From contig JAJYJM010000001.1 in the NCBI GenBank assembly GCA_021789495.1, forward strand, positions 89,004 to 153,003: 64,000 nucleotides of DNA. The letters are read 5' to 3'. Position 1 is the stretch's first letter, and every line of letters begins with the position of its first letter. This document shows positions 38,841 to 59,323 of the stretch, one piece after another. The notes beneath the pieces were generated by a model. It made no database searches, was not told the origin of the DNA, and worked only from the letters and a program-made list of their open reading frames with translations. The position numbers and the translations under genes are program-made. Source of the DNA: Nitrospirota bacterium (lineage in GTDB: Bacteria; Nitrospirota; JACRHJ01).

Positions 38841-39699
38841 TATTCTGCACCTGTTCCCGAATTTTCTCCATCTCGGATTTCATTTCGATTACGCGCCTCG
38901 CTATCTCGAAATCGGACGCCTTGCTCCCGATGGTATTCAGTTCCCGGTTTATTTCCTGTATCAGGAAGTCCAGCTTCCTGCCCACGGGGCCGCCGTCGTC
39001 GAGCATCCTGGTAAGCTGGGCAAGGTGGCTCCTGCCCCGGACGACTTCCTCCGTGATGTCGCATCTGTCAGCCATCAGGGCCGTTTCCTGCGCAAGCCTT
39101 TCACCGTCGAGTTCAATTCCCTGCGCAAGCTTTTCCACGCGCTCCTTGAGCTTAGCCTGGTATTCCCTGACAACTTCCGGCGAGCGTTTCGCCACTTCGT
39201 CGAGACCGAGTGAGATATTCCGCGAGCGGCTCCGGATGTCGGCGCCTAAGTTTGCGCCCTCCTCGGCGCGCATCCTCTCAAGCGCGTCCATCGCTTCCCT
39301 GAGCGGAGCTTCCAGGGCCGCCCAGAGCGCCTCCACGTCGCCCGTTTCCTCCTGGACGATAATTATATCCTTAAGCGAGCCGACCATGTTCAAGTCTACC
39401 TCTCCGGGCAGGCCGAAGCGGGACTTAAGCTCCGATAAAAGCTCGATATATTGCTTAGCCGCCGGGACGTCGAGCTTCAGCGCCCTGGGGCCTTCCTCTG
39501 AGCCGCCGGAGGTAACAAAGACGTCTATCCTGCCGCGCGAGAAACGCTCTCCGATGGCCTTCTTAAGCCGCGCCTCAAGCGGGGAAAGTATCTTCGGCAG
39601 CCTCGGCGCGATGTCGAGGAACTTGTGGTTGACGGAGCGCATTTCGACGACGAAACCGCCGCCCTCGCCCTTGCCGAAACCGGTCATGCTCCTTATCAT
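38833..39699 (-). CDS. yicC: YicC family stress-induced protein
   Basis: MIRSMTGFG start. 288 aa with the YicC N-terminal and DUF1732 C-terminal pattern. Confidence 0.8.
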   Translation of the reverse strand: MIRSMTGFGKGEGGGFVVEMRSVNHKFLDIAPRLPKILSPLEARLKKAIGERFSRGRIDVFVTSGGSEEGPRALKLDVPAAKQYIELLSELKSRFGLPGEVDLNMVGSLKDIIIVQEETGDVEALWAALEAPLREAMDALERMRAEEGANLGADIRSRSRNISLGLDEVAKRSPEVVREYQAKLKERVEKLAQGIELDGERLAQETALMADRCDITEEVVRGRSHLAQLTRMLDDGGPVGRKLDFLIQEINRELNTIGSKASDFEIARRVIEMKSEMEKIREQVQNIE

Positions 39700-39778
39700 G
39701 TATCAGTCCCTCAAAATTAGGAATCATATTATAAAAAATCCCTTTTGTCAACGGGGCTTTTATGCTATCTTTCGATAC

Positions 39779-40597
39779 ATGCAGGGACGCTTCAGGCTCA
39801 TAGATTCGGGGGCGGGGGACGCCGCATGGAACATGGCGGTGGACGAGGCGCTGCTCGTTTTGTGCGGCCCGGAGCCTGTCCTGAGGTTCTATTCCTGGAA
39901 TGCCCCGTCGCTCTCAATCGGTTCATTTCAAAAGGTTTTTGCCTTTGACTTAGACGGCATTTCGGCCAGAGGCATTCCCCTTGTCAGAAGGCCGACCGGC
40001 GGACGCGCGGTGCTGCACGACTCGGAGCTTACATACAGCCTAACATGTTGTATTCCCAACGATTTTTTCCAGTCAGACCTCATGGGTTCCTATAAGAAAA
40101 TCGGCGCGTGTTTCCTTCGCGGGCTGAATTCCATCGGGCTTCCGGCGGAGCTTGTTCCTGTAAAAAAAAATAGCAATAACAACAGGTTAAGCGGGCCGTT
40201 ATGTTTTTCGTCGCCGTCGTGGCACGAGGTTTTGGCGGGCGGGAAAAAGCTTATCGGCAGCGCGCAGAGAAGGCTGAAAAACTCTTTTCTTCAGCAGGGT
40301 TCCATAATTATCGATAAAGATTACGATGCGCTTTTGTCGCTTATGAGGTTCGAGGACGAATCAGGCAGGGAAACCGCGCTTGAGACGCTTTCCCGAAAGA
40401 TGACGGCCCTGAGGGAACATCTGCCGGAGGTCGATATTTCCGAGCTTAAGTCTGCTATTATAAAGGGATTTTCCGATGTGCTCGATGCGGATTTTCTGCC
40501 CGGTTCCCTGACGACGGAAGAGGAGGCCCTGGCCCGCGACCTGCTGGAGAACAAGTATTCGCGCCCTGAATGGAACCTCGAAAGACGCCTTTCCTGA
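39779..40597 (+). CDS. lipoate-protein ligase / octanoyltransferase family (BPL/LPL catalytic domain)
   Basis: LIDSGAGDAAWNMAVDEALL...RRPTGGRAVLHD...KLIGSAQRR. Start at ATG 39779. The 558-aa ORF-track entry is a chimera with a spurious N-terminus. Confidence 0.7.
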   Translation: MQGRFRLIDSGAGDAAWNMAVDEALLVLCGPEPVLRFYSWNAPSLSIGSFQKVFAFDLDGISARGIPLVRRPTGGRAVLHDSELTYSLTCCIPNDFFQSDLMGSYKKIGACFLRGLNSIGLPAELVPVKKNSNNNRLSGPLCFSSPSWHEVLAGGKKLIGSAQRRLKNSFLQQGSIIIDKDYDALLSLMRFEDESGRETALETLSRKMTALREHLPEVDISELKSAIIKGFSDVLDADFLPGSLTTEEEALARDLLENKYSRPEWNLERRLS

Positions 40598-42410: not shown

Positions 42411-43196
42411 TTAAATTTTCGCCTTTTCTTCCGCCGCCATGTATTCAGACAACAGGGTTTTGAATTCCTTGCGAAGACCTACCACCTCTCCGATTACGAT
42501 AAGCGCCGGAGTGTCGAGCCCCGCCGCCGAAGCCGCCGAAAAAAGCTCCGAAAGCGGCGCGATCACCTGCCTCTGGCCGTGCGAAGTCCCGTGGCTTATG
42601 ACCGCCGCGGGCGTGTTTCCGGGGCGTCCGGCGGAGATGAGGCGCTCCGCTATCTCGGGGAGGCGCGTAAGTCCCATGTATATTACAATCGTGCCGACGG
42701 CGGTGGAAAGCTTCTCCCAGTCCACGGGGTCTTCAAGCCCGCTTCCCGGATGCCCCGTGACGAACGCGACGCTGCCGGAGACGCCCCTGTGCGTGACGGG
42801 TATGCCGAGCGAACCGGGGACGGCCACGCCGGACGTTACGCCGGGGACGACCTCGCAGGGAACGCCCGCTTCGCCGAGCGCCATGACCTCCTCGCCGCCG
42901 CGCCCGAAGACAAACGGGTCTCCGCCCTTGAGCCGCACGACCGTATTGCCAGCCAGCGCCTGCTCTATGAGCGTGCGGTTTATCTCTTCCTGCGAAGGGC
43001 ACATCCTGCCCGCGCGCTTGCCCATGTACAGGAGCTTTGCGTCCGGAGGCGCGAGCTTAAGGAGCGACTCCTGCACGAGGGCGTCGTAGACCACCACCTG
43101 CGCCTTCTTCAGGATGGCCGCGCCTTTCAGGGTTATAAGCTCCGGGTCTCCGGGACCCGCACCGATGAGATATACGATGCCTGTTTTTACTGCCAT
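42411..43196 (-). CDS. cobA: uroporphyrinogen-III C-methyltransferase (SUMT)
   Basis: VYLIGAGPGDPELITLKG...VVRLKGGDPFVFGRGGEE signature, 261 aa. Confidence 0.85.
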   Translation of the reverse strand: MAVKTGIVYLIGAGPGDPELITLKGAAILKKAQVVVYDALVQESLLKLAPPDAKLLYMGKRAGRMCPSQEEINRTLIEQALAGNTVVRLKGGDPFVFGRGGEEVMALGEAGVPCEVVPGVTSGVAVPGSLGIPVTHRGVSGSVAFVTGHPGSGLEDPVDWEKLSTAVGTIVIYMGLTRLPEIAERLISAGRPGNTPAAVISHGTSHGQRQVIAPLSELFSAASAAGLDTPALIVIGEVVGLRKEFKTLLSEYMAAEEKAKI

Positions 43197-43215: not shown

Positions 43216-43566
43216 CTATTCTTCGGGATGAAGCGGCCCCTGGAGATATACCAGGATTTCTTCGCCCGGATTCGGGAGTCCCGCCACCTTCCACGCCTTC
43301 AAAGGGTCCATTTTAAACGGCCTTGACGCGCAGGTCTTCGGTTTATGAAGGTTGGTGCATACCATCTTGAGTAGCGGGAACGAATGGAATTTGATGTAAT
43401 AGTTTCTGAGGAACTTTATTACTTCCAGGCGGTCTTCCGTAAGCTTGCTGATCCCTTCACGCTTCGCAATCGCTGCCGCCACGGCCTCGTTCCAGGCGTT
43501 GATGCTTGCCAGATAGCCGTTTTTATCCAACTCGACGCTGCCGCCTTCATATTTCAGCGATGGCAT
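43216..43566 (-). CDS. TusE/DsrC-family protein lacking both C-terminal redox cysteines (DsrC paralog)
   Basis: Aligns with the bona fide DsrC at 60156-60491 (NAWNEAVAA/NDWNEDVAG; KVAGLPNPGEE vs KIAGLPKPTGCV), but the Cys(B) position is Trp and the C-terminal GCV is replaced by an extended tail. Confidence 0.6.
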   Translation of the reverse strand: MPSLKYEGGSVELDKNGYLASINAWNEAVAAAIAKREGISKLTEDRLEVIKFLRNYYIKFHSFPLLKMVCTNLHKPKTCASRPFKMDPLKAWKVAGLPNPGEEILVYLQGPLHPEE

Positions 43567-43585: not shown

Positions 43586-44029
43586 TTACTGGTAGCCCTC
43601 GAATTTGCCTTCGATGTAGTCCTTGAGGTAGCGGTTCTCCGCCTCCACCTTGTGCATCAGCCCGCGCACAACGTCCCTGATGGATATAATGCCGGTAAGG
43701 TTCTGCCCGGACATGACGGGCAGATGGCGGATAGTGTTCTTCGTCATGATGTTCATGACGTAGTCGAGGTCGTCGTCTACAAGCCCGATAAGGATGTTGT
43801 GGGACATGACCTCGGCCACCTTGCGCGCACCGTATCCGCCGGGGTTGTCGTGGACCTCGCGGAGAATGTCTCTCTCCGCGATGACGCCTTTTAAGCTGCC
43901 GTTGCCGTCGATGACGGGAAGACAGCTTATCTTGTTGACAATGAGGGTCTTGAGAGCTTCCGAGACTTTCTGGTCAACATTTGCCGTTATAAGGCCCCTG
44001 CTGGTATCGAGAATGTCCTTGATCTTCAT
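43586..44029 (-). CDS. CBS domain pair protein
   Basis: Two CBS motifs (HLPVMSGQNLTGIISIRDV; CLPVIDGNGSLKGVIAERDI), 147 aa. Confidence 0.7.
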   Translation of the reverse strand: MKIKDILDTSRGLITANVDQKVSEALKTLIVNKISCLPVIDGNGSLKGVIAERDILREVHDNPGGYGARKVAEVMSHNILIGLVDDDLDYVMNIMTKNTIRHLPVMSGQNLTGIISIRDVVRGLMHKVEAENRYLKDYIEGKFEGYQ

Positions 44030-44091: not shown

Positions 44092-44334
44092 CTACTTCGT
44101 CTTCTTTATGAAGTAGTGCTGCTTGCCGTCTTTGTCTTCCGTGCCGAGAAGCTCGTTGCCCGTCCTCTTGGCCCATGCCACGATGTCGTTGACGGTGCCG
44201 AGGTCGGTGCCTATCATCTCAAGAATCTTCCCGGTCTCCATCTTCTTCACGGTCATGTTGGTCTTCAGTATCGGCTCCGGACATACCATCCCGGAACAGT
44301 CGAGCACCTGATCAGCCTTGATGTCCATGATCAA
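44092..44334 (-). CDS. tusA: TusA-like sulfurtransferase
   Basis: 80 aa with the LDCSGMVCPEPILK (CPxP) motif. Confidence 0.75.
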   Translation of the reverse strand: MIMDIKADQVLDCSGMVCPEPILKTNMTVKKMETGKILEMIGTDLGTVNDIVAWAKRTGNELLGTEDKDGKQHYFIKKTK

Positions 44335-44439: not shown

Positions 44440-45909
44440 CTACCTGCTCCACCACTCGCCGGTCTTTAAGTACTGGTCTATGTTCTTTGCGGCGCTTCTG
44501 CCCGCGCCCATCGCCAGGATAACCGTGGCGGAGCCGGTGACGATGTCGCCGCCCGCGAAGACGCCCTTCTTGGTCGTCCGGCAGGTCTCTTCGTTTTCCA
44601 CTTCGATATAGCCCTTCTTCGTCTGGCCGAGGCCCGGAGTCGTCTGGAACAAAAGCGGATTGGAGCTCGTGCCGATGGACACGACCACGGCGTCCACTTC
44701 CAAAGTGAACTCCGAGCCCGGCTTCGCAACCGGCCTGCGCCTGCCGGAATCGTCCGGAAGGCCGAGCTCCATCTCTATGCACTCAAGGCCCTTGACCCAG
44801 CCCTGCTCGTTTCCAAGAACTTTAACCGGCGCGACAAGGAGCTTGAACTGCACGCCCTCGTGCATCGCGTGCTCGACCTCTTCCTTTCTGGCCGGAAGCT
44901 CGTCCTTCGAGCGCCTGTAGACGATATAGGCGTTGTCCGCGCCGAGCCTCAGCGCCGTGCGGACGGCGTCCATTGCGACGTTGCCGCCGCCGACTACCGC
45001 GACATTTTTGAACCTCTTTATCGGCGTGTCGTATTCCGGGAACCGGAATGCCTTCATGAGGTTCGAGCGCGTGAGGAACTCGTTGGCGGAGTAGACGCCG
45101 TTCAGGTTCTCGCCGGGTATGCCCATGAACCACGGAAGCCCCGCGCCGTTGCAGATATATACTGCGTCGAAGCCGTCCTCGCTCATGAGCTGGTCTATTG
45201 TCTTTATCTTGCCGATGACGTAGTTCAGCTTTATCTCGACGCCCATCTGCTCAAGCACCTTGACCTCGCGCTCGACGATGGCCTTCGGAAGCCTGAACTC
45301 CGGTATGCCGTATACCAGAACGCCGCCGGCCTTGTGCAGGGCCTCGAATACCGTTACCTTGTGGCCCATCACAGTGAGGTCGAACGCGGCTGTCAGGCCG
45401 GACGGCCCCGCGCCGACTATGGCAATCTTTTTGCCGGACGGCGCCGCGGCCTTGGGTATACGGCCTCCGCCGTGCTTCGCCTGAAAATCGGCCACGAACC
45501 GCTCAAGGCGCCCTATGGCCACGGAATCGCCCTTCTTGCTGAGGATGCAGACCTTCTCGCACTGCATCTCCTGCGGGCATACGCGCCCGCATACCGCGGG
45601 CAGGAGGCTCGACTCCTTTATCTTCGCAAGCGCGGAGAGGTAGTCCTTGCTCTGGATGAGGCCGATAAAAGACTTGATGTCGATACCTACCGGGCATCCC
45701 GTGGTGCAGAAAGGCTTCTTGCACTGGAGGCACCGCGACGCCTCAAGGAGCGCCTGCTCCTCCGTATAGCCCAGCGTCACCTCGTCGAAATTTTTCGCCC
45801 GTACGTGCGGGTCCTGCTCCGGCATGGCCTGCCTGGGGACCTTGGGCTTGGCCTGCTTTTGGCCACCTTCCCCCTGGCCCGCCTGACCCTCTTTTTTCTC
45901 TTCGCTCAT
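44440..45909 (-). CDS. GltD-like NAD(P)H oxidoreductase large subunit (NfnB/SudA-type)
   Basis: 489 aa with two N-terminal Cys clusters and FAD and NAD(P) Rossmann motifs (IAIVGAGPSGL; VAVVGGGNVAMD). Confidence 0.8.
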   Translation of the reverse strand: MSEEKKEGQAGQGEGGQKQAKPKVPRQAMPEQDPHVRAKNFDEVTLGYTEEQALLEASRCLQCKKPFCTTGCPVGIDIKSFIGLIQSKDYLSALAKIKESSLLPAVCGRVCPQEMQCEKVCILSKKGDSVAIGRLERFVADFQAKHGGGRIPKAAAPSGKKIAIVGAGPSGLTAAFDLTVMGHKVTVFEALHKAGGVLVYGIPEFRLPKAIVEREVKVLEQMGVEIKLNYVIGKIKTIDQLMSEDGFDAVYICNGAGLPWFMGIPGENLNGVYSANEFLTRSNLMKAFRFPEYDTPIKRFKNVAVVGGGNVAMDAVRTALRLGADNAYIVYRRSKDELPARKEEVEHAMHEGVQFKLLVAPVKVLGNEQGWVKGLECIEMELGLPDDSGRRRPVAKPGSEFTLEVDAVVVSIGTSSNPLLFQTTPGLGQTKKGYIEVENEETCRTTKKGVFAGGDIVTGSATVILAMGAGRSAAKNIDQYLKTGEWWSR

Positions 45910-45928
45910 TAGTTACCGTCCTTATCGC

Positions 45929-46780
45929 TTAAGCCGAATGGCAGAGTTTTTTCCTGCATATGTCAGCCGCCTGCTTCTCCTCGGGCAGATACTGCCTCTG
46001 GCGCGCCATCATCTCGTCGTAGTCCACCTCGTGCCCGTCGAACTCCGGGCCGTCAACGCAGACGAACTTTGTCTTCCCGCCGACGGTTACGCGGCACGCG
46101 CCGCACATCCCGGTGCCGTCCACCATGATGGTGTTGAGGCTGGCGAAAGTCTTTAGTCTGTGCGGCTCCGTAACCTTGCAGACGAACTTCATCATAATCG
46201 GCGGGCCGATTACGACGACAAGGTCGACAGGTATCTTCTCGACCTCTATCATCTGCTTGAGCTCGTCCGTCACGAAGCCTTTCTTCACGTATGAGCCGTC
46301 GTCCGTGGTGATGCGCACCTCGGTCGAAGCCTTTCTCATCAGGTCTTCGTATATCAAAAGGTCCTTCGTCCTGGCACCCAGGATGGATATGACCTTGTTG
46401 CCTGCGTCTTTCATGGCCTTCGCAATCGGATGTACCGGCGCGATGCCCACGCCGCCCCCGATGCAGACGACCGTTCCGAATTTCTCCACGTGCGTCGGCT
46501 TGCCGAGCGGCCCCGCGACATGCATGAGCTTGTCGCCTTCCTTGAACGAGCCGAGGAGCATCGTGGAGGCCCCGACTTCCTGGAACAGGATGTTTATGGT
46601 GCCCTTTTCGGCGTCCTTGTCGGCAATCGTGAGAGGTATCCTCTCGCCCGATTCCCGCGGTATTATGATGACGAACTGCCCGGCCTTGTGTGCCCTGGCT
46701 ATCTCCGGAGCGTCAAGCACGAACTCCGTTATCCTCGGTTCCTGCGCAGACCAAACTGTCTTTTTTAAGATTTCGTACAT
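45929..46780 (-). CDS. ferredoxin-NADP reductase-like small subunit (NfnA/SudB-type, 2Fe-2S)
   Basis: 283 aa. FAD/NAD-binding PDR-like fold plus a C-terminal GTGMCGACRV...C cluster. Confidence 0.75.
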   Translation of the reverse strand: MYEILKKTVWSAQEPRITEFVLDAPEIARAHKAGQFVIIIPRESGERIPLTIADKDAEKGTINILFQEVGASTMLLGSFKEGDKLMHVAGPLGKPTHVEKFGTVVCIGGGVGIAPVHPIAKAMKDAGNKVISILGARTKDLLIYEDLMRKASTEVRITTDDGSYVKKGFVTDELKQMIEVEKIPVDLVVVIGPPIMMKFVCKVTEPHRLKTFASLNTIMVDGTGMCGACRVTVGGKTKFVCVDGPEFDGHEVDYDEMMARQRQYLPEEKQAADICRKKLCHSA

Positions 46781-46792
46781 TCAGCCCCGTCC

Positions 46793-47263
46793 TTAGTTAT
46801 GTTCTATTTCTCTCATAAAATCGTCGTATTTCTCCTCGAAACCCCTCAAATGCCTGCTCTCTTCGTCCGCCAGCAGAAGGAACAATTTCCTGGCCTTCGG
46901 GTCGTCGGACAGCGCGGCGTATTTCTTGTAAGACTCGAACGCCTCTTTCTCCTTGGCCATCGCCGCCCTGAGCACGTCCTGGTAGCTCGCCGTCTCGTCC
47001 AGCCTTACCGAGCCTACGTAATCGGCATATCCGAGCGGTTTCGCCACGCCTTGCGACTTCGGTATCTTTCCGCCTTTTTCGACCTTCTTTTCCAGCTCGT
47101 TCAAGTGGTCGATGTGTTTCTGCTCCTCCTTCGCCAGGTGCTGGAGGTATGCCCGGACGTTATCAACCGAGGACTTTTCAGCGGCCTCAAGGTAGAAACG
47201 TTTTGAGTTCTCCTCGTTTATCCTGGCGTAGTCGATTATCTCTCTCAGCGTGATTTCTTCCAT
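46793..47263 (-). CDS. rubrerythrin/ferritin-like diiron domain protein
   Basis: Repeated E...EExH motifs (AKEEQKH; ADEESRH), 156 aa. Confidence 0.5.
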   Translation of the reverse strand: MEEITLREIIDYARINEENSKRFYLEAAEKSSVDNVRAYLQHLAKEEQKHIDHLNELEKKVEKGGKIPKSQGVAKPLGYADYVGSVRLDETASYQDVLRAAMAKEKEAFESYKKYAALSDDPKARKLFLLLADEESRHLRGFEEKYDDFMREIEHN

Positions 47264-49034: not shown

Positions 49035-49280
49035 TTATGCGTTCGCGCTTCCCTCTACGTGCGGAAGCTCGATCGTAGTGCCGCCGAAATAGCCATATAC
49101 GAGCTTCTCCTCGTCGATCAGCTCCTTAAGGGCCTCCTTCACGTCTTTCTTGGAGCACGCGGCCTCGCCGAAGTGCTCTATGACTTCCTGGGTAAGGTGG
49201 GGAACCTTCACCTGCTTTTTGCCGGCATAGGACTCCACCTTGTGGAACAAGTAGTCTTTTATCTCTTCTAAGGACGCCAT
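49035..49280 (-). CDS. dsrD: DsrD (dissimilatory sulfite reductase D, winged-helix)
   Basis: 81 aa, Lys/Glu-rich, directly downstream of dsrB. YGYFGGTTIEL is typical of the DsrD C-terminus. Confidence 0.7.
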   Translation of the reverse strand: MASLEEIKDYLFHKVESYAGKKQVKVPHLTQEVIEHFGEAACSKKDVKEALKELIDEEKLVYGYFGGTTIELPHVEGSANA

Positions 49281-49291
49281 TTTAGCACCTC

Positions 49292-50368
49292 TTAAAATTT
49301 AACGTGTGTAGAGGAATTGTACGTGCTGGACGCCAGGGTGTAGTCGTCGATATGGTACTTGGTGAATTCCAGGCCCGTCTTCTCGAAGAACTTCTGCCAG
49401 CCTATCCTGCCTATCCACTCGCCGACCCTCTCGTACTTCTTCGCGTCTTTCGCGTAGGTCTCGACGATGTTCTTGACCGCGCTCGTGACTTCCGGCCAGC
49501 GCGGCGGGTTGTTCGGGAGATAGGGTATCGCGAGCTTGGAGAACATCGGAGCGGTGCGGGAGTTGGAGACCTTGCCGCCAACCCATATCGAGATACCGTC
49601 GTTCAGCGGGTTCGCTATCGGCATCGCCGGGCAGACGGTGTAGCAGTTGCCGCAGTACATGCAGAGGTCCTCCACCACCTCGACCGTCTTCTTGCCGGCT
49701 ACCACCTTCGGGCGTATTGCTGCCTTCGGGCAGGAGGCGACGGTTGACGGGATTTCGCACATGTTGGCGAGCTTGTCATTATCTATCGTCGGCGGAGTCC
49801 TGTGGATGCCGAGGATGGCGATGTCGGAGCAGTGGACCGCGCCGCACATGTTGAGGCAGCATGCGACCGCTATCCTCAGGTGCGCGGGAAGCGTCATGGA
49901 CGTGAAGTAGTCGATAAGCTCGTCCATGGTGGCCTTCACCACTCCGGATGCGTCCGTCGCGGAGCTGTGGCAGTGAACCCAGCCCTGGGTATGGACGATG
50001 TTTGAGATGGAGTTACCCGTGCCGCCGACCGGCTGCCCCATCTTGGCGAGCTCGTCGATAATCGGCTGGATGTTGGCTTCCTTGTCCGTCATGAACTCGA
50101 CGTTGTTGCGGCTCGTGAACCTGAGATACCCGTCGCAGTACTTGTCGGCAAGGTTGCAGTAATCGCGTATCTTCTCGATGCTTACAAGCCTTGATGACGC
50201 CGCGCGGATGGTATACAGCTTGTCGCCGGTCTCCGAGACGTGCATCAGAACGCCCGGCTTGACTTTCTCGTGATACTTCCACTTGCCGTAGTTCTTCTTC
50301 ACCATAGGGTGGAGCATCTGTTCGTAATGGGGTGGCCCTATGTCTGTCTTTCTCTTCGGAGCTGCCAT
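49292..50368 (-). CDS. dsrB: dissimilatory sulfite reductase beta subunit
   Basis: Closely matches Desulfovibrio DsrB (DIGPPHYEQ...[10 protein letters not shown]...[11 protein letters not shown]...[13 protein letters not shown]). Confidence 0.9.
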
Positions 50369-50470
50369 TTTCTCATTCCCTCCGTTTTTATTTATTCGTA
50401 GACCTGTTTACAATAAGTCGTTAATCCTGCTAATTCCGCCGGGGCGCTTTCACTCCGCCCCCGGCCACCA

Positions 50471-51649
50471 TTATTCTTCGTCGAAATACTCTTCGTAGAA
50501 GATATACGGGTTGGACCTCGGCTCCTTTATCATGGCGGGAGTAGGCTCAAGACCGACTTCCTCGACAAAGTTGCCCTTGCCGATACGGACGATCATCTCG
50601 CCTATGCGCTCCCTGTTCTCGCCGTGCTCATCCCAGAACTCCCATATGCGGCGGATAAGGTCCTTGAACTCCTCGTACGGCGGCTCCATTTTTATAAATG
50701 GAACCAGCACGGAAGAGAGCAGGGCGCCCTGGACAATAGGGGCCTTTGCGCCGAGAAGTATCATCGCGCCCTTGTCCTTGCCGGGGCGAAGAGCCTTCGG
50801 CATGACGTTTATGCAATGCATGCAGCGGTTGCAGTTCTTGTTGTCAATGGAGAGCTTGGAGCCGTCCCATGACATGCAGCCGGTCGGGCATTTCGCGACG
50901 ACGTCATTCGCTATATCCACCTTGCCGCCCTTGGCGTATTCCGTGATTGCGGCGTTGTCCTGCTGGATATCGTCCCTCCATGTGCCGATAATGGAGCAGT
51001 CGGAGCGAGCTATCGAGGCGACGCAGTCGTTCGGGCAGCCCGACATCTTGAACTTGAACTTGTACGGGAACGCCGGCCTGTGAAGCTCGTCCTGGTACTC
51101 GTTCGTCAGGTCGTAGCATAAGTTCATGGTGTCGTAGCAGGCGAACTCGCAACGGGCCATGCCGTTGCAGCAGGACGGGGTGCGGACGTCGGAGCCGGAG
51201 CCGCCAAGGTCCCAGCCGTGCTCGGAGAGGTCTGTGAATATGTCTTCGAGGTGGTCGGTAGTGGTGCCGAGCATGATGAAGTCGCCGGTCGAGCCGTGCA
51301 GGTTCGTAAGACCGGAGCCGTGCTTCTCCCAGAGGTCGCAGAGATAGCGGAGCGCGCCGGTGTTGTAGAACCATGCGGATGGCTGGTTCACGCGGACGGT
51401 GTGGAAGTGGGAGACGTTCGGGAACTTCTCCGGCGAATCGGAATAGCGGCCTATGATGCCGCCGCCGTAACCGCGGACGCCGACTATGCCGCCGTGTTTC
51501 CAGTGCGTCTTCTTGTCCTTGTAGGACATCTCAAGGAGACCCAGGAGGTCTTTGCACATGGCGTTCTTCGCGGCCATCCTCTTGATGTCCTTGATGAAGC
51601 TCGGCCATGGGCCGGTTTCAAGCTGGTCAATCATTGGGGTATCTGACAT
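50471..51649 (-). CDS. dsrA: dissimilatory sulfite reductase alpha subunit
   Basis: [17 protein letters not shown]...[11 protein letters not shown]...CEFACYD...[14 protein letters not shown]...[10 protein letters not shown]. 392 aa, shorter than the typical DsrA. Confidence 0.9.
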
Positions 51650-51719
51650 CTACTTTCTCCTTTTCTGGTTATGAAACTAAACCTAAGAAAATGCCGAACC
51701 GGGCTATTCCTCACCTCCT

Positions 51720-52385
51720 TTATTCGTCGTTTTTCCGAATTTTTTCGAGCGCGTCGCCCGCGGCGCGCGCTACGCTAATATTTGTTAAGGCATCTCCCTC
51801 GTAAAGACTAATAACGGCTTCGTCCCCTGTAAGTTTCCCGAGGCCCTCTTTAGCCGCCGCGAAACGCATCCTGCCGAGCGCCCATGCGGAGAAGCCCCTT
51901 ATCACCGGCTCCGGGTCTTCAAGGAACTTCACGAGCGCCGGTCCCATCTCCGAAACCAGCGCAGGCTCGTCTTCCGCAAGCGCCCCGATGGCCCAGACGG
52001 AACCCGCGAGTATCGGCGTATTCCTGTTCGCGGGAAGGGAAACTTCCTCGTCGTCGGAGAGGTGGAGAACCGCTCGTATGGCGTCCCGCGCCATGCCCGG
52101 ATTATTTCTGTATATCTCCGCGATGGCCTGCGCGGAACACCAGCCTACGGTGCTCGATTCCTCGTTGAGGAACCATAGAAGCCGTCTCACCGCCGGCGCG
52201 AGGTCGGTACTGCCCTCAGCCGCAACCAGCCCCAGCAGCGTCACGGCCCTCCATCTGAGAAGCTCCTCCTCGGAATATAAAAGACCGAGCAGAATCCGCA
52301 GGTTTCCATGTCTTTTTTTAACGAGGTCCATCGCTTCCTGATACTTCCGGGCAAGCAGTAGTTCCGACAGGGTTTCCCTGTCCAT
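51720..52385 (-). CDS. HEAT/PBS-lyase-like repeat protein
   Basis: 221 aa of repeated helical LLxxLxDxxxxVRxxAxxALG-type units. Confidence 0.5.
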   Translation of the reverse strand: MDRETLSELLLARKYQEAMDLVKKRHGNLRILLGLLYSEEELLRWRAVTLLGLVAAEGSTDLAPAVRRLLWFLNEESSTVGWCSAQAIAEIYRNNPGMARDAIRAVLHLSDDEEVSLPANRNTPILAGSVWAIGALAEDEPALVSEMGPALVKFLEDPEPVIRGFSAWALGRMRFAAAKEGLGKLTGDEAVISLYEGDALTNISVARAAGDALEKIRKNDE

Positions 52386-52390
52386 GTTTA

Positions 52391-52687
52391 TTAAAGCCAG
52401 GTCATCGGCTTGTGCTGCTCGACAAGATCGACAAAATCGGCGTAGTCGATTACTTTCACGCCGGGGGTCAGGCTGCCCGCGAGGCCCCTCGCGGAAATGT
52501 CCGCGCCGAGCGCGTAGACCGGGTGGTCCTTAAGCGCGCCCTGGACAAGGCCCTCCACCGAGCCTCCAACGGCGGCGCCGAGCACGGCGTCTTCAATAAG
52601 CAGTATCGGGGCGTTCTTCTGCGCCACCCTGATGCAGCTCTCCAGGCTGCTTTTCATGTACGGAGATTTGTTTACTATGTGAAGCAC
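52391..52687 (-). CDS. dsrH: DsrH/TusB family sulfur relay protein
   Basis: 98 aa. MLHIVNKSPY..., VYAL..D..ARGL..., IDYADFVDL align well with E. coli TusB. Confidence 0.7.
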   Translation of the reverse strand: MLHIVNKSPYMKSSLESCIRVAQKNAPILLIEDAVLGAAVGGSVEGLVQGALKDHPVYALGADISARGLAGSLTPGVKVIDYADFVDLVEQHKPMTWL

Positions 52688-52703
52688 CTTGAAAGCCTCC
52701 TGT

Positions 52704-53060
52704 TTAAAAGGGCAGTATCACGTCCTGCTCTTCCATTATCTTGCCGATGCCCGCCGAATCCATCACCTCGACCGGTATTGCGAAATCATCCACCTTCAGG
52801 CCGCGTTTTTCCATGGATTCCTTGTCCACGTATATTTTCTCGCAGCCGTAGTCCTCAAGCACAGGCAGGGTCTGGAGAAATCCCTTTATGCCGAGTGCCG
52901 AGGTATCCTGCCCTTTTTTGAGGGAGAAAACGGCGTCGTCCATGTAGACGGCGGAGAGCTCGTTTTCGTATGCGCCGAAGATGAGGACGACTTCCAGCCC
53001 TTCCCAGGCGTATATCGTCCCGTGCGGGGCGTTCCTGTTCACGAACATTATCTTTGCCAC
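52704..53060 (-). CDS. dsrF: DsrF/TusC family sulfur relay protein
   Basis: 118 aa. NRNAPHGT...EGL, DDAVF, DVILPF match the TusC pattern. Confidence 0.7.
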   Translation of the reverse strand: MAKIMFVNRNAPHGTIYAWEGLEVVLIFGAYENELSAVYMDDAVFSLKKGQDTSALGIKGFLQTLPVLEDYGCEKIYVDKESMEKRGLKVDDFAIPVEVMDSAGIGKIMEEQDVILPF

Positions 53061-53080
53061 TTTTTAAATCTCCTTTCCTC

Positions 53081-53437
53081 TTAGTCTCCGAAGGTGACTA
53101 CGCGCTCCGCCTCGGTGCATATCTCGCTAAGCTGGCCCAGGCCGGATATTCTTGTATTATCGACTATAAGTTCCGGCTTCATCCCGCGCCTCTTGGCCGC
53201 CGCCACGCAGACGACTATGTCAACGCCCTTGGCCCCGAGCTCCGACCACCGCCTTGCGATATGCCTGTCGTCCTGCGGCGGCTCCATGTGCTTGGCGACG
53301 TTCGTAACCGCGTCGTCATAGAGAAAGACGCCCTGGATGGTATGACCCTTGGCCATTGCCGCTTCGATAAACTTGTAGGCGGTATCGGAGGCCTCGTGGT
53401 TATACGGGCCTTCCTGTATCATTACGCCTATTTTCAT
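53081..53437 (-). CDS. dsrE: DsrE/TusD family sulfur relay protein (conserved active-site Cys)
   Basis: 118 aa. VFLYDDAV...CVAAAKRRG matches the TusD/DsrE Cys motif. Strong AGGAGG RBS. Confidence 0.75.
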   Translation of the reverse strand: MKIGVMIQEGPYNHEASDTAYKFIEAAMAKGHTIQGVFLYDDAVTNVAKHMEPPQDDRHIARRWSELGAKGVDIVVCVAAAKRRGMKPELIVDNTRISGLGQLSEICTEAERVVTFGD

Positions 53438-55351: not shown

Positions 55352-55939
55352 TTATTCCTTTACGGTTTTCTTAAGCCCCAGGAAGAAAAGCAGGGAGACA
55401 ATCATCACCACGAGCAGGCCAAGCCCTATCACCTTTTCCAGCTTGTAGTCGTCGCGGAGCTTGTTTATCTTCTCGTAGATTTCTCCCATACCCTTTTTAA
55501 TTTTCAGGTTCGGTCCCGCGAAGGAATCTATGGAGTCCACGTCCTTCGTTCTCAGGTCTGCATACTTTATGTTGTATTTGACCAGGTCCGCCCGCATATA
55601 TTCCGGGTATCTCATGGTCTGCTCTTCGAGGTCGCTCAGGAACTGGTTGTATTTCAGGAGCCTGCTTTCCGTGAAATACTGCTCCTTCTTTATCTCGAAA
55701 AGCCCGGGGCAGAGCGTGCTCTTCTGCTCCTGATAGATGCTCCTGTCCCATTTCATCAGGCTCCCGAATGAGGCAATTTCGCCCGCGGTATGGCATTCGG
55801 CGCAGTAGTTGTCCTTGGCCGCCGCGTAAGCCGGGATAAAAAGCACGATGAGAACCGCTGCTATAAAAATTCCTCTTACTCTCCCTGTCACGGTATACTC
55901 CTTTTTATTAAGAGTAATGTCCCACGATTGTAAGGCCAA
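55352..55939 (-). CDS. membrane-anchored monoheme c-type cytochrome
   Basis: One CAECH heme-binding site, N-terminal and C-terminal hydrophobic helices. The start overlaps the upstream gene by about 30 nt and may lie downstream. Confidence 0.55.
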   Translation of the reverse strand: MALQSWDITLNKKEYTVTGRVRGIFIAAVLIVLFIPAYAAAKDNYCAECHTAGEIASFGSLMKWDRSIYQEQKSTLCPGLFEIKKEQYFTESRLLKYNQFLSDLEEQTMRYPEYMRADLVKYNIKYADLRTKDVDSIDSFAGPNLKIKKGMGEIYEKINKLRDDYKLEKVIGLGLLVVMIVSLLFFLGLKKTVKE

Positions 55940-56339
55940 CGAAAATTAAAACGCCGCCTATAATGGCAGCCTTGCCGAGCATTGACCGATTCTTCCAGCC
56001 CTTCGCCGGCCCCCTGTCAAGGAACGGCAGCAGGAAAAGCCCCGTTATCGCGAGCACCTGCACCCCCATGCCTATCAGTTCCGCCACGTCTCCGAAGATG
56101 GTGGTCGGGAACATCTTCAGCGTCTGGTACGCCGCAAGGAAATACCACTCCGGCTTCACGCCGAGCGGGGTGTTGGTGGTGTCAGCAGGCACCTCCGGCG
56201 GCAGGAAAAGCTTTGGAATAAAAAAGGCAATCAGGAAGAAGATGCCGATTATAATGGAGGCTATTATCCCCTTGTCTATTACGTCGTTCGGCCAGAAAGG
56301 TTCAAGCTCGCCTTTCCAGTTGTCCTTGTTATATTTCAT
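55908..56339 (-). CDS. cytochrome b C-terminal domain / b6f subunit IV-like protein
   Basis: PEWYFL motif, three transmembrane helices, 143 aa. Confidence 0.75.
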   Translation of the reverse strand: MKYNKDNWKGELEPFWPNDVIDKGIIASIIIGIFFLIAFFIPKLFLPPEVPADTTNTPLGVKPEWYFLAAYQTLKMFPTTIFGDVAELIGMGVQVLAITGLFLLPFLDRGPAKGWKNRSMLGKAAIIGGVLIFVGLTIVGHYS

Positions 56340-56354
56340 TCTCCATTCCTCTCT

Positions 56355-57020
56355 TTATAACTGCTCTTGAATGCCCGACCTTCTAATCATCATAAAGTGG
56401 AAGGCCATGAGAAGCGACATGACTACCGGAAGCGCCAGGTGCAGGGCGAAGAACCTGCCGAGCGTGGCGCCGGAAACCGCGTCCGCGCCGCGTATCACCT
56501 TCATCATTATCGGCCCGACGACAGGCACGACGGAGAACGAGGTCGTGAGAACCGTGACCGCCCAGTAGGAGAGCTGCGTCCAGGGAAGCAGATAGCCGGA
56601 GATTCCCATCATCATCGTGAGCATAAGAAGGGCGAAGCCTGACAGCCAGTGGAACTCCCTGGGGGCCTTGTACGCCCCGGTCATTATCACTTTCAGCATG
56701 TGTATCATCACGAGGAGTATCATGACGTTGGCGCCTATGGCGTGCAGACGTCTGAAGAGCCAGCCGAAATAGACGCCGTTGTCGATGAATACGACGCTGG
56801 AGAAGGCCTCCTTCGGCGAGGGCGTGTAGTAGATGAGGAGAAACGTGCCCGTGAGCACCTGGATTACAAAGAGTATGAGGGACATCCCGCCGAAGCAGCC
56901 GAAGAACTCGTACCACTTTTTGATAGTCGGGGCCTTCTTGGAAAACACCTCGTCGTCCAGCAGCTCGGAGATCCCCGTGCGGGAATCTATCCATTCAATC
57001 ACCTTGCTCATCCTATGCAC
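56355..57020 (-). CDS. cytochrome b6-like (cytochrome b N-terminal domain)
   Basis: 221 aa, four transmembrane helices, conserved His pairs (RRLHAIGANVMILLVMIHM). Confidence 0.8.
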   Translation of the reverse strand: MHRMSKVIEWIDSRTGISELLDDEVFSKKAPTIKKWYEFFGCFGGMSLILFVIQVLTGTFLLIYYTPSPKEAFSSVVFIDNGVYFGWLFRRLHAIGANVMILLVMIHMLKVIMTGAYKAPREFHWLSGFALLMLTMMMGISGYLLPWTQLSYWAVTVLTTSFSVVPVVGPIMMKVIRGADAVSGATLGRFFALHLALPVVMSLLMAFHFMMIRRSGIQEQL

Positions 57021-57498
57021 CTCCGACTATCAATTTGTCGCCGGCAATCTTGTAATCGAGCTTCTCGAGAGGCGCGGGAGGAGGACCGCCTTTGTTTATC
57101 CCGTGCTCGTCGTACCAGCCGTCATGGCAGGGGCACTTGAAAATCTTCTTGTCCGGTTCCCATTTTACCGTGCAGCCCAGATGGGTGCACTTCAGGGATA
57201 TAACCTCCAGTCCCGTCTTCCTGTTGAAGACCATGAAGGAATATCCGGCGTAAACGCCCTTCGCGGAACTTCCGACGGGTATATCCCCCAGGTTCATTAT
57301 CGCGGGTTCAGGCTTGCCTCTCTGGACGGGCGTGAAGGACGCCAGAAGCGGAACACCGACAAGCCCCGCGCCCAGCGCGCCTACGCATCCGGCGAAAGCG
57401 CCAAGGAAAGCCCGCCTTCCGGCCATGAATTTTCCACCGTGGTGCTCTTCGGGCACCGGGGCGGCGCCTTCTTTAGCGGTGTTTTTATTTTCTTCCAT
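57013..57498 (-). CDS. Rieske [2Fe-2S] iron-sulfur protein
   Basis: CTHLGC...CPCHDGW Rieske boxes. N-terminal Tat-like RR (AGRRAFLGA). Confidence 0.8.
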   Translation of the reverse strand: MEENKNTAKEGAAPVPEEHHGGKFMAGRRAFLGAFAGCVGALGAGLVGVPLLASFTPVQRGKPEPAIMNLGDIPVGSSAKGVYAGYSFMVFNRKTGLEVISLKCTHLGCTVKWEPDKKIFKCPCHDGWYDEHGINKGGPPPAPLEKLDYKIAGDKLIVGGA

Positions 57499-57514: not shown

Positions 57515-57820
57515 TTATTCGTATCCTGAGACCCTTTTGACGCCTACATAATCATGGCAATTATTGCACGAGGTGTTCGCGTCGTGGCAGAGCATGCACT
57601 CGTGCTTGTTGTAGTCGCCTCTTTTAAGGATGTCCATGTGGTGGTCTTTCCAGTAATCGACCGGCTGATGGTATTCCGGGGAGAGGATTCCCGGAGGAAG
57701 CTTGAGCGCAAGCGGCCCCGTGCCCTTGAGCTCCGGCTTGGCGACTCGCTCGTTGGAACAGCCGACGGCGAAAACGGCCAGAAGGGATATAAACAGCAGG
57801 ACAAGGATTGGTTTCCTCAT
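57515..57820 (-). CDS. small diheme c-type cytochrome lipoprotein
   Basis: Lipobox AVGCS and two CxxCH motifs (CMLCH, CNNCH), 101 aa. Confidence 0.65.
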   Translation of the reverse strand: MRKPILVLLFISLLAVFAVGCSNERVAKPELKGTGPLALKLPPGILSPEYHQPVDYWKDHHMDILKRGDYNKHECMLCHDANTSCNNCHDYVGVKRVSGYE

Positions 57821-59323
57821 TTATATCCCCTCCTTCCCGCCGAGAACAATCGCGCGGCTGACGAGCTGGTGCACTCCGCCGACTTCCTCCATCTCATACC
57901 CGTAATACGGGAAGACCTTCGTGAACTGCGCCTTGCATATTGCGCAGATGAGCGCGAAGAAGTTTGCTCCGTGGCTGTCCTTGACGGCTTTATACGCCTG
58001 CATTCTCGGCATAACGCCTTTTATGCGAAGGTCGATTATCTCGTCGGCGAGCAGTCCTCCTCCGGCTCCGCAGCAGAATGTCTTTTCGCGGATGGTGTCC
58101 GGGTGCATGTCCACGAACTTGTTGCACGTGGCCCTGATTATCGCCCTCGGTATCTCGAACTGGCCTCCGGGACTGTTGCCCATCCTCGATGCGCGGGCCA
58201 CGTTGCAGGAGTCGTGGAATGTGACGACGAAATCGTCGTTGGCCGTCTTGTCGAGTTTCAGCGCCCCCCTGTTTATAAGGTCGTACGTAAACTCGCAGAT
58301 ATGCTGCGGCGCGGGATATTTCGGGTCGAGGGAATCGAACGGCCCGATGAGGGTATTCCAGAAGCTGTAGGCCACGCGCCAGGCATGGCCGCATTCGCCG
58401 TGTATAAGCCTCTTCGGCTTAAGTTCGTTTATTGCCACCTTTATCCTGCCGGCAATCTTGCGCATATGCTCGTAGTTTCCGTTGAACATGCCGAAATTGC
58501 CGGCCTCGGAGGCGTATGACGAGAGCGTCCATGAAATCCCCGCCTGGTGAAACACCTTCGCGTATCCGGCGAGCGACTCGACATGCGGCGTGGCGAAGAA
58601 ATCAGCCGAAGGGGTTATGAGCAGGACATCCGCTCCCTTTACGTCCATCGGGAACTTCACCGGGACGCCTGTCTGCTCCTTGACGTCTTCTTCCATGAAG
58701 TCGAGCGTGCTGCGGATGGCCGGGCCGGGCATTCCGAGGTTGTTGCCTATCGTTATAGCCTTGTTGATGGTCTGAAGAGGATATTTCGCGCCAAGACCAA
58801 CGGTGTCCATTATCTCCCTGGCGGCCATGGTTATCTCTGCGGTGTCTATGCCGTAAGGGCAGAAGAGCGAACAGCGCCTGCACTCCGTGCACTGGTAAAA
58901 ATAGGTATACCATTCTTCCATGACTTCTCTGGTTAGATCCTCCGCCTCGGCCAGCTTGCCCAATACCTTTCCGGCCGTCGTGAAGTAGCGGCGATAGACC
59001 TTCCGCAGGAGCTCAGCCCTCGCCACCGGCATATTGCGCGGGTCCTTTGTGCCGAGGTAGAAGTGGCACTTGTCGGTACATGCGCCGCACTTGACGCAGA
59101 TGTCCATGAAGACCTTGAGGGAGCGGTATTTCTTGAGAAGCTCGGCGAACTTGGCGACCGCCTTCTCTTTCCAGTCCGGGACAAGCTCCGTGGGAAAACC
59201 CAGGTCGGTCATGTCCTTCGCCGGCGCGTTATGGCTTTTTACAGCCGCCGCGGCGTCTTCTTTCAGGCCGGGTATCGCTATCTCACCGGTCAGTTCCGGG
59301 ACCTCAAACTTTACTTTTGCCAA
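57821..59323 (-). CDS. dsrK: DsrK (HdrD-like FeS/CCG-domain subunit)
   Basis: Two ferredoxin motifs (CVKCGACTDKC; CTECRRCSLFCP) and CCG-domain motifs (FCCGAGGG). Immediately downstream of dsrM. Confidence 0.75.
   Translation of the reverse strand: MAKVKFEVPELTGEIAIPGLKEDAAAAVKSHNAPAKDMTDLGFPTELVPDWKEKAVAKFAELLKKYRSLKVFMDICVKCGACTDKCHFYLGTKDPRNMPVARAELLRKVYRRYFTTAGKVLGKLAEAEDLTREVMEEWYTYFYQCTECRRCSLFCPYGIDTAEITMAAREIMDTVGLGAKYPLQTINKAITIGNNLGMPGPAIRSTLDFMEEDVKEQTGVPVKFPMDVKGADVLLITPSADFFATPHVESLAGYAKVFHQAGISWTLSSYASEAGNFGMFNGNYEHMRKIAGRIKVAINELKPKRLIHGECGHAWRVAYSFWNTLIGPFDSLDPKYPAPQHICEFTYDLINRGALKLDKTANDDFVVTFHDSCNVARASRMGNSPGGQFEIPRAIIRATCNKFVDMHPDTIREKTFCCGAGGGLLADEIIDLRIKGVMPRMQAYKAVKDSHGANFFALICAICKAQFTKVFPYYGYEMEEVGGVHQLVSRAIVLGGKEGI

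Follow-up and report, generated by a model that had tools for sequence, protein, structure and literature searches.

When the marker genes of dissimilatory sulfite reductase (Dsr) pathways contradict each other within a single operon, in which direction is the pathway likely to run? Metagenome bins are commonly classed as sulfate-reducing or sulfur-oxidizing by the genes dsrD, dsrEFH, and dsrL, and a clean case of conflicting labels is found in a 64,000-nucleotide stretch of contig JAJYJM010000001.1 from a Nitrospirota bacterium (assembly GCA_021789495.1), hereafter called the window. The original prediction, made from its letters, was that dsrEFH and tusA, known from sulfur oxidizers, share one locus with dsrD, known from reducers, and it suggested a disproportionating or bidirectional system. 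According to our analysis, the minus strand carries all of these genes at or close to the predicted positions, with tusA further down the same strand (44092 to 44334) and outside positions 49035 to 53437. The window carries a complete mixed-type dsr cluster of one uncultured Nitrospirota lineage, and we consider it probable, with moderate confidence, that the cluster serves a disproportionating or switchable pathway centered on DsrC, its direction being judged from gene content.

Gene families were identified by Pfam and NCBIfam scans together with direct reading of motifs (G+C content of the window, ~56%), and related loci were taken as the 80 with the most similar DsrA, of which flanks of 10 kb were examined. 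The genes dsrE, dsrF, dsrH, a HEAT-repeat gene, dsrA, dsrB, an 81-residue DsrD-like gene, and dsrL run along the minus strand from 53437 to 47341, and this run sits, together with tusA, within a co-directional cluster of 25 genes spanning ~20 kb (62186 to 42411; Table 1). The order and strand proposed for dsrEFH and dsrABD-dsrL were correct, although dsrEFH is not directly upstream, as a 221-residue HEAT-repeat gene separates dsrH from dsrA. From dsrE to cobA the intergenic gaps measure 5 to 124 bp on one strand, and a promoter and terminator scan of this interval revealed no evident internal break, while being too crude to establish a single transcript. The order of the 25 genes is kept in three further assemblies, namely L081 (a 291-kb ENA contig), L089 (Nitrospirae metagenome-assembled genome [MAG] GCA_016222885.1), and L090 (an 83-kb ENA contig), and in part in L001, a Nitrospirota MAG from the SPRUCE peat site that is the closest GTDB representative (89% identity in DsrA). 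Since the same order recurs in these assemblies, the arrangement is a stable property of the lineage and neither chance, an assembly accident, nor a recent insertion. The closest DsrA sequences belong to Nitrospirota MAGs (82 to 92% identity to the window DsrA), and the sequenced relatives of the lineage originate from peat bog and groundwater.

The products of the three adjacent genes dsrE, dsrF, and dsrH all exceed the cut-offs of TIGR03012, TIGR03010, and TIGR03011, respectively, which are models shared by TusBCD and DsrEFH. The window DsrE is 55.9% identical to Allochromatium DsrE (2hy5_A; E = 1.6e-33), with the active-site cysteine aligned within VVCVAAA in both proteins, and DsrH matches Allochromatium 2hy5_C (E = 5.5e-21), with the cysteine of SLESC aligned with that of SLESC. 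These residues we take to be Cys78 of DsrE and Cys20 of DsrH in the A. vinosum numbering. Identities of 61 to 70% were obtained with named DsrE proteins such as those of Magnetococcus, Sulfuricaulis, and Thiohalobacter; the named relatives at 62 to 69% comprise these three together with further Magnetococcales, a tubeworm symbiont, and one MAG each of Deltaproteobacteria and Leptospirales. Within the window lineage DsrE identity amounts to 76 to 93%. Because DsrE is 56% identical to its Allochromatium counterpart while type I and type II DsrEFH share <30% identity (Plum-Jensen et al. 2026, PMC13293266), the window DsrEFH is, by sequence similarity, canonical type I. It belongs to an unusual minority, since reductive dsrAB is present in only 2.4% of the genomes carrying type I DsrEFH (PMC13293266). 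Among the 80 loci with the closest DsrA, none (0/80) had dsrE, dsrF, or dsrH within 10 kb of dsrAB.

The case that had been named as speaking against the original prediction is that these genes are tusBCD, acting in tRNA 2-thiouridine synthesis and unrelated to dsr. The three TIGRFAM models do cover both groups, and some sources label the orthologues "tRNA 2-thiouridine synthesizing protein D." However, the Escherichia coli proteins match much more weakly than those of Allochromatium (1e-14 for TusD against 1.6e-33 for DsrE, and 4.6e-11 for TusB against 5.5e-21 for DsrH), the E. coli-type models stay under their cut-offs (NF001237 with 90.5 bits for a cut-off of 92 and NF010035 with 60 bits for a cut-off of 104), in four assemblies dsrEFH lies within the dsr cluster, in the stretch from dsrK to dsrA, mnmA was not found among the window open reading frames (ORFs) scanned, and the sole additional TusE/DsrC-like gene lacks the C-terminal cysteines. 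On similarity, dsr context, and the lack of a usable TusE we rejected this reading, which we deem very improbable.

The remaining members of a sulfur relay are also encoded in the cluster. TusA carries CPEP, a CPxP motif with the active cysteine; its score with NF001423 is 52 bits, below the cut-off of 78, and Pfam TusA (PF01206) was found in the orthologues from L081 (79% identical to the window protein), L089, and L090. The window DsrC ends in ...CKIAGLPKPTGCV and keeps both conserved cysteines. Sulfur transfer from TusA via DsrEFH to DsrC is predicted for these proteins from their sequences. A second protein of the DsrC/TusE family ends in ...GPLHPEE, and its gene, kept in L081 and L089, adjoins a CBS gene and cobA. 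As both C-terminal cysteines are missing, its sequence indicates that it cannot serve as a DsrC-type sulfur carrier.

A phylogenetic analysis of DsrAB had been proposed as a check. We built neighbor-joining trees of DsrA and DsrB, each paralog rooted with the other, from the window, 35 related loci, and references for the oxidative side, namely the SUP05 phage Lau218 rdsrA (annotated as reverse-type) and the clusters L084 and L085. Both window proteins, DsrA and DsrB, were placed among the reductive bacterial sequences, with Aquicultor primus and a Desantisbacteria MAG as neighbors, and apart from the phage rdsrA and L084/L085; the reductive clade that includes the window and leaves out the phage and L084/L085 sequences was recovered in 71/100 (DsrA) and 62/100 (DsrB) bootstrap replicates. 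The window DsrA is 70.6% identical to that of Desantisbacteria, 68.3% to Zixibacteria, 64.8% to Desulfacinum hydrothermale, 60.5% to Desulfofustis glycolicus, 50.8% to L084, which is a dsrEFH-C-AB-L cluster, and 43.1% to the phage rdsrA (38.7% by tblastn). On the trees and these identities the window DsrAB is of the reductive bacterial type. Named oxidative DsrAB references were not found in the plasmid collection, nor was dsrAB found within 10 kb of the DsrE genes of Thiohalobacter, Magnetococcus, the tubeworm symbiont, and Sulfuricaulis.

The clusters L084 (8516 to 19617) and L085 (8528 to 13941) have the order dsrN-EFH-C-AB and no dsrD; L084 continues into dsrL-...-MK, and L085 ends within dsrA. 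They harbor the closest DsrEFH outside the window lineage, with a DsrE identity of 70%. In L084 dsrE is duplicated, in L085 there are three to four DsrC-domain genes, and the L084 DsrA is about equidistant from the phage rdsrA (45%) and from the Desulfacinum DsrA (47%).

The identity of the gene called dsrD called for a closer inspection. DsrD proteins are described as products of a gene immediately after dsrB, with ~78 residues, a winged helix-turn-helix, conserved lysines, and fusion to DsrB in some organisms (PMC8794893), a DsrB-DsrD fusion being known from Bilophila (PMC8794893). In the window, a gene encoding 81 residues starts 11 bp past dsrB. Its product scores 15.2 bits with Pfam DsrD (PF08679), under the gathering score of 24.2, the NCBIfam scan gave no match, and the Desulfovibrio DsrD structure in the PDB was found neither by phmmer nor by a profile of 33 sequences. 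Of the 80 related loci, 53 encode a homologue, mostly directly after dsrB and in L074 and L080 fused to DsrB, and the protein is conserved at 66 to 96% across the lineage, with K25 and K44 invariant and K31 and K48 nearly invariant in the family. Its AlphaFold model is a winged helix of three helices and a hairpin (predicted local distance difference test score, 83). A Foldseek comparison of this model with the PDB returned generic winged-helix domains only (for example, cullin WHB and MCM4 WHD), with DsrD absent from the top 50, a result that confirms the predicted fold and not the DsrD family.

With hhalign, the 81-residue protein aligned over its full length with canonical Desulfobulbia DsrD (probability, 39%; E = 3e-4), YGYFGGTT being placed on FWSSGSTT. 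The window has YGYFGGTT at the position of the DsrD motif, the family consensus is Y-x-Y-F-G-G-S, and YWSSGSTT is described for Desulfobacterota only (PMC8794893). The orthologues P0128 (84% identical) and P0131 (81%) pass the Pfam DsrD model with 25.3 and 26.1 bits, and two more distant family members are likewise above the cut-off. A profile search of 1.84 billion representatives recovered 113 family members, including intermediates that pass or approach the Pfam cut-off, and no canonical YWSSGSTT DsrD was among these 113. Since position, size, and predicted fold agree, the profile similarity is weak but present, and close orthologues pass the Pfam cut-off, we conclude that the 81-residue protein is a predicted divergent DsrD orthologue. 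For the window protein itself, the name dsrD given by the original prediction is supported by neither Pfam nor NCBIfam. The Pfam model detects only 2 of the 33 DsrD-like proteins encoded after dsrB in Nitrospirota, Zixibacteria, Acidobacteria, Ignavibacteria, and others, even at E < 1. Surveys based on Pfam would consequently undercount dsrD in the window lineage and in many of its relatives, and the organisms missed would look "dsrD-negative," which would nudge annotation pipelines towards oxidizer calls.

DsrL had been counted among the oxidative markers, a view that its residues do not support. The hallmark of DsrL-2 is the YRR motif in the NAD(P) site, that of DsrL-1A two insertions of ~30 residues, and at the position of NfnB Cys42 a Cys is found in DsrL encoded with oxidative DsrA and an Arg in DsrL-2 encoded with reductive DsrA (Loffler 2020, PMC7596348). 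The window DsrL (559 residues) has the YRR motif in the context ...TLSYRRTRTEMPA, has no DsrL-1A insertions, and carries C-terminal cysteine motifs that align with those of other DsrL proteins, residues 506 to 558 matching the ferredoxin domain Fer4_21 of Pfam. In the register of our own alignment, the Cys42 position reads S-A-L-R in the window, S-x-L-R in the Desantisbacteria, Acidobacteria, and Zixibacteria relatives, and S-W-K-C in L084. Because YRR and Arg match the DsrL-2 encoded with reductive DsrAB, the window DsrL is, as judged from these residues, a DsrL-2 of that kind and hence no oxidative marker. In Desulfurella, DsrL-2 donates electrons from NADPH to DsrAB (PMC7596348). A rubrerythrin-like gene and an NfnAB-like pair (44440 to 46780) directly follow dsrL in all relatives, the rubrerythrin-like gene being split into two short ORFs in L081. 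This neighborhood suggests that the NfnAB-like pair could supply or consume the NADPH of DsrL-2, as a dedicated NADPH link.

Taken by gene content, a core of the reductive kind (DsrAB, the divergent DsrD, and DsrL-2 with Arg and YRR), flanked by NfnAB-like genes, is co-directional with TusA, type I DsrEFH, and a two-cysteine DsrC, and DsrC, DsrMK, DsrN, and the siroheme gene are parts common to both directions. Since both accessory gene sets are intact and their order is fixed across the lineage, we favor a switchable or disproportionating organism, in which DsrC would be the hub of a pathway running both ways. In the reductive direction, NADPH, possibly from Nfn, would feed DsrL-2 and through it DsrAB, activated by DsrD; sulfite would be converted to the DsrC trisulfide, then reduced by DsrMK with menaquinol. 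The stimulation of DsrAB sulfite reduction by DsrD is documented for the Archaeoglobus and Desulfovibrio proteins (PMC8794893). In the oxidative direction, TusA and DsrEFH would load sulfane sulfur onto DsrC, DsrAB would oxidize it to sulfite, and electrons would leave via DsrL-2 to NADP+ and via DsrMK to the quinone pool. Persulfuration of DsrC by TusA/DsrEFH is reported for Allochromatium. Both halves operating at once would amount to disproportionation of sulfur or thiosulfate. The interpretation offered by the original prediction survives to the extent that an oxidizer-type relay accompanies reductive DsrAB, a combination that matches a published reading, while the direction of the pathway is not readable from sequence.

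The same core could belong to an organism that only reduces sulfite, sulfate, or thiosulfate, with DsrEFH and TusA as leftovers or as handlers of sulfane sulfur en route to reduction, for example, from thiosulfate or polysulfide. DsrAB of the reductive type, the retention of the DsrD-like protein across the lineage, a DsrL-2 whose Desulfurella counterpart passes NADPH electrons to DsrAB, the adjacent NfnAB-like genes, and nearest DsrAB relatives (Desantisbacteria, Zixibacteria, and Acidobacteria) that are read as reducers all agree with it. However, DsrE, DsrF, and DsrH are intact with their catalytic cysteines kept, and a DsrE as conserved across the lineage as this one would be unexpected for a leftover; all four assemblies have dsrEFH at one and the same place, between dsrK and dsrA, and type I DsrEFH is unusual in the gene set of a reducer (PMC13293266). 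We therefore deem a purely reductive organism rather unlikely.

The membrane complex encoded in the cluster differs from the known DsrMKJOP set of five subunits, which is incomplete here. M and K are present, a J-like protein has two hemes, no dsrO or dsrP is found in the window cluster, and at their place lie genes for a Rieske protein, cytochrome b, and a subunit IV-like protein. Aligned with the DsrJ proteins of L009 and L018, which have three hemes, the DsrJ-like protein is missing the third heme motif. In the Desantisbacteria locus L009, one of the nearest neighbors in the tree, a three-heme dsrJ stands with dsrO and dsrP between dsrK and dsrA, whereas in the window, and equally in its relatives, this interval contains the J-like gene, Rieske, cytochrome b, subunit IV-like, a one-heme cytochrome, and a lipoprotein, followed by dsrEFH and the HEAT-repeat gene. 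The module spans 57820 to 55352 on the minus strand of the window, 1458 to 3991 in L081, and 3385 to 5990 in L089. It recurs in Tariuqbacter (L058, 9680 to 11255) in the order dsrM-K-J'-Rieske-cytochrome b and in a Phycisphaerae MAG (L020, 15599 to 17751), where J'-Rieske-cytochrome b follows dsrM and a dsrK-like gene lies upstream. A full-text literature search yielded no description of a linkage between DsrJ, Rieske, and DsrMK. Having Rieske/cytochrome b genes in place of dsrOP could represent a form of the Dsr membrane complex that has yet to be described, and the linkage of dsrMK to Rieske/cytochrome b is the most original of our side observations. More tentatively, and with more doubt than belief, we suggest that in the window lineage, L058, and L020 a Rieske/cytochrome b module acting as quinol oxidase took the place of DsrOP and works with a two-heme derivative of DsrJ, and that type I dsrEFH was inserted behind this module in the Nitrospirota lineage, giving one operon for both Dsr directions. 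If true, this would constitute a hitherto undescribed "DsrMK-J'-bc" respiratory unit, in which DsrC redox state would be coupled to periplasmic cytochromes of the c type.

The module also bears on whether the organism might be a sulfur oxidizer that runs reductive-type DsrAB backwards and keeps DsrD as a holdover. Such backward operation has been proposed for Desulfurivibrio alkaliphilus and cable bacteria, a precedent for oxidation with a reducer-like gene set, and it would agree with type I DsrEFH, TusA, and a two-cysteine DsrC in one cluster and with a quinol-oxidizing Rieske/cytochrome b module and periplasmic cytochromes c beside dsrMK. Yet established oxidizers are without dsrD (PMC8794893), which is conserved in the window lineage in its DsrD-like form, the window DsrL belongs to the subtype that accompanies reductive DsrAB, and neither terminal oxidase, nitrate reductase, sox, nor sqr genes were among the window ORFs scanned. 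The module itself was rejected as evidence for oxidation, since it occurs in L058 and L020 with no dsrEFH found in their fetched flanks. A purely oxidative life is, in our view, quite improbable.

Several points weigh against the switchable or disproportionating pathway that we favor. Enzyme-level reversal of reductive-type DsrAB was never shown (PMC8794893, PMC13293266), and DsrD, the Arg-kind DsrL-2, and NfnAB would all fit a purely reductive pathway. The occurrence of the Rieske module with dsrMK in L058 and L020, with no dsrEFH in the flanks examined, means that the module alone is no sign of oxidation. The DsrAB trees were built by a distance method, with one firmly oxidative reference, and their bootstrap support is moderate. 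Among the larger ORFs scanned in the window, none encodes sat, apr (aprAB), qmo, sox, sqr, or an oxidase, a check that had also been proposed and that applies to the window only. Finally, the genome may hold another dsrAB, of the oxidative type, outside the window, such second copies being on record for CG2_30_53_67 and Gaiellales.

How does this locus compare with those already described? The presence of dsrD, dsrEFH, and dsrL in one genome or operon was reported between 2018 and 2026, Nitrospirota included, and the combination was read as sulfite reduction, sulfur oxidation, or both (Anantharaman 2018, PMC6018805, Table 2); further exceptions to the markers are discussed by Loffler 2020 (PMC7596348) and Diao 2023, the file of the latter not listing the related MAG GCA_016222885. 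In Candidatus Acidulodesulfobacterales, reductive-type dsrAB, dsrD, dsrL, and dsrEFH lie in one operon and possible switching between sulfate reduction and sulfide oxidation was considered, with similar operons in Actinobacteria, Lambdaproteobacteria, one Nitrospirae genome, and one Deltaproteobacteria genome (Tan 2019, PMC6776010). The window shares this gene combination and differs in phylum and habitat. Its gene order, with dsrEFH upstream of dsrA behind the Rieske module, a HEAT-repeat gene in between, and nfnAB-tusA downstream, may differ as well. Klier 2024 (PMC11406059) recognized "transitionary phyla" (group two: Nitrospirota, SAR324, Nitrospinota, Actinomycetota, and CG2-30-53-67) that keep dsrA, B, C, D, E, and L, and whose DsrAB stands beside a clade of Zixibacteria, Acidobacteriota, Myxococcota, and non-Chlorobia Bacteroidota in which dsrD/dsrL were retained and dsrEFH was lost; the phyla of this clade are among the nearest relatives of the window DsrA outside its own lineage. 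In SAR324 with DsrD, dsrEFH and dsrAB were on different scaffolds (PMC11406059), whereas in the window the genes form one string. The window locus is thus a further example of the known mixed class (Klier group two and the operons of Tan 2019) and no discovery, and it leaves unchanged the picture drawn by the 2018 to 2026 surveys.

With the dsrABEFHCMKLJOPNRS cluster of Allochromatium vinosum, the window has in common the type of DsrEFH with its active cysteines, TusA, DsrC, DsrMK, DsrL, and DsrN; it differs by its reductive DsrAB, the DsrD-like gene, a short DsrL-2 instead of DsrL-1A, the lack of dsrOP, and two hemes instead of three in DsrJ. The dsrABD-dsrL-2 clusters of Desulfurella amilsii, Acidobacteria, Zixibacteria, and Desantisbacteria (PMC7596348) have the same order dsrA-B-D-L and a DsrL-2 with YRR and Arg. 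For DsrC, DsrK, and DsrL the best match beyond the lineage came from Desantisbacteria L009, which also ranked close to the top for DsrM and has dsrJOP where the window has the Rieske module and dsrEFH. In cable bacteria and many sulfate reducers, type II DsrEFH (YTD cluster) accompanies tusA and reductive dsrAB and is read as a sulfur-oxidizing capacity (PMC13293266). Both that system and the window join a DsrEFH-like transferase and tusA with reductive-type dsrAB, but the window DsrEFH is type I and lies inside the dsr cluster rather than in yeeE-tusA-dsrEFH, with no yeeE/yedE adjacent.

Table 1. Genes of the dsr cluster in the window, listed in the direction of the minus strand, with the evidence for each assignment
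Feature	Coordinates	Strand	Evidence
dsrN-like amidotransferase, CobB/CobQ type	60783..62186	-	Pfam GATase_3, 131 bits; CbiA, 66 bits
DsrC, both conserved C-terminal cysteines	60156..60533 (likely start 60491)	-	Pfam DsrC, 159 bits
DsrM membrane cytochrome b	59336..60067	-	NF038037, 188 bits, E = 2.8e-55, under the 300-bit cut-off; directly upstream of dsrK
DsrK	57821..59323	-	NF045796, 582 bits (cut-off 400)
DsrJ-like lipoprotein cytochrome, 101 residues, two hemes	57515..57820	-	Two CxxCH motifs; lipobox
Rieske iron-sulfur protein	57013..57498	-	Pfam Rieske, 33 bits; weak Tat-signal domain match
Cytochrome b, b6-like N-terminal part	56355..57020	-	Pfam Cytochrome_B, 182 bits
Cytochrome b C-terminal part/subunit IV-like	55908..56339	-	Pfam Cytochrom_B_C, 61 bits; TIGR01156, 37 bits (below cut-off)
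Membrane-anchored one-heme cytochrome c, without known family	55352..55939	-	One CxxCH motif; hydrophobic stretches near N and C termini
Alanine-rich lipoprotein, 592 residues	53562..55340	-	Lipobox; no match in Pfam and NCBIfam
DsrE, type I	53081..53437	-	Pfam DsrE, 110 bits; TIGR03012, 110 bits (cut-off 89)
DsrF	52704..53060	-	TIGR03010, 109 bits (cut-off 94); Pfam DsrE domain
DsrH	52391..52687	-	Pfam DsrH, 89 bits; TIGR03011, 90 bits (cut-off 49)
HEAT-repeat protein, DVU0298 family, 221 residues	51720..52385	-	NF045662, 150 bits (cut-off 75)
DsrA, reductive bacterial type	50471..51649	-	TIGR02064, 586 bits; tree and identities
DsrB, reductive bacterial type	49292..50368	-	TIGR02066, 530 bits; tree and identities
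Divergent DsrD-like winged-helix protein, 81 residues	49035..49280	-	Position, size, predicted fold; Pfam DsrD, 15.2 bits (cut-off 24.2)
DsrL-2, NAD(P)H oxidoreductase with C-terminal ferredoxin domain, 559 residues	47341..49020	-	PRK12771, 601 bits (cut-off 516)
Rubrerythrin/ferritin-like protein	46793..47263	-	Pfam Rubrerythrin, 53 bits
NfnA-like FAD/NAD-binding subunit	45929..46780	-	NF004862, 402 bits (cut-off 220)
NfnB/GltA-like subunit	44440..45909	-	TIGR01316, 576 bits (cut-off 472)
TusA sulfur carrier	44092..44334	-	CPEP motif; Pfam TusA in orthologues
CBS-pair protein	43586..44029	-	Weak NCBIfam matches, all CBS-domain proteins; orthologue with Pfam CBS
Second DsrC/TusE-like protein, without C-terminal cysteines	43216..43566	-	TIGR03342, 69 bits (cut-off 53.5)
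Uroporphyrinogen-III C-methyltransferase (cobA), siroheme branch	42411..43196	-	NF004790, 319 bits (cut-off 198)

Among the genes listed in Table 1, the dsrN-like gene opens the cluster in L089 and L090 as well, and the one-heme membrane cytochrome c is kept in L081, L089, and L090. The lipoprotein of 592 residues, encoded between the cytochrome genes and dsrE, has a homologue in L081 (480 bits by phmmer) and lies at the same position in L089 and L090. The HEAT-repeat gene of the DVU0298 family is found between dsrH and dsrA in 4/4 assemblies, and weaker homologues occur in dsr-containing loci of ~10 other lineages, placed after dsrN in both loci that were mapped (L002 and L024). Outside the cluster, on the plus strand, positions 38921 to 40597 encode a protein of 558 residues with a lipoate-protein ligase catalytic domain at residues 300 to 517, the preceding ~300 residues having no family match. 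A short ORF at 63161 to 63517, also on the plus strand, shows a weak match (31 bits) to a SoxA/TsdA-type cytochrome c domain, is possibly a fragment, and overlaps the end of a cysteine synthase gene (62265 to 63173) by 13 bases.

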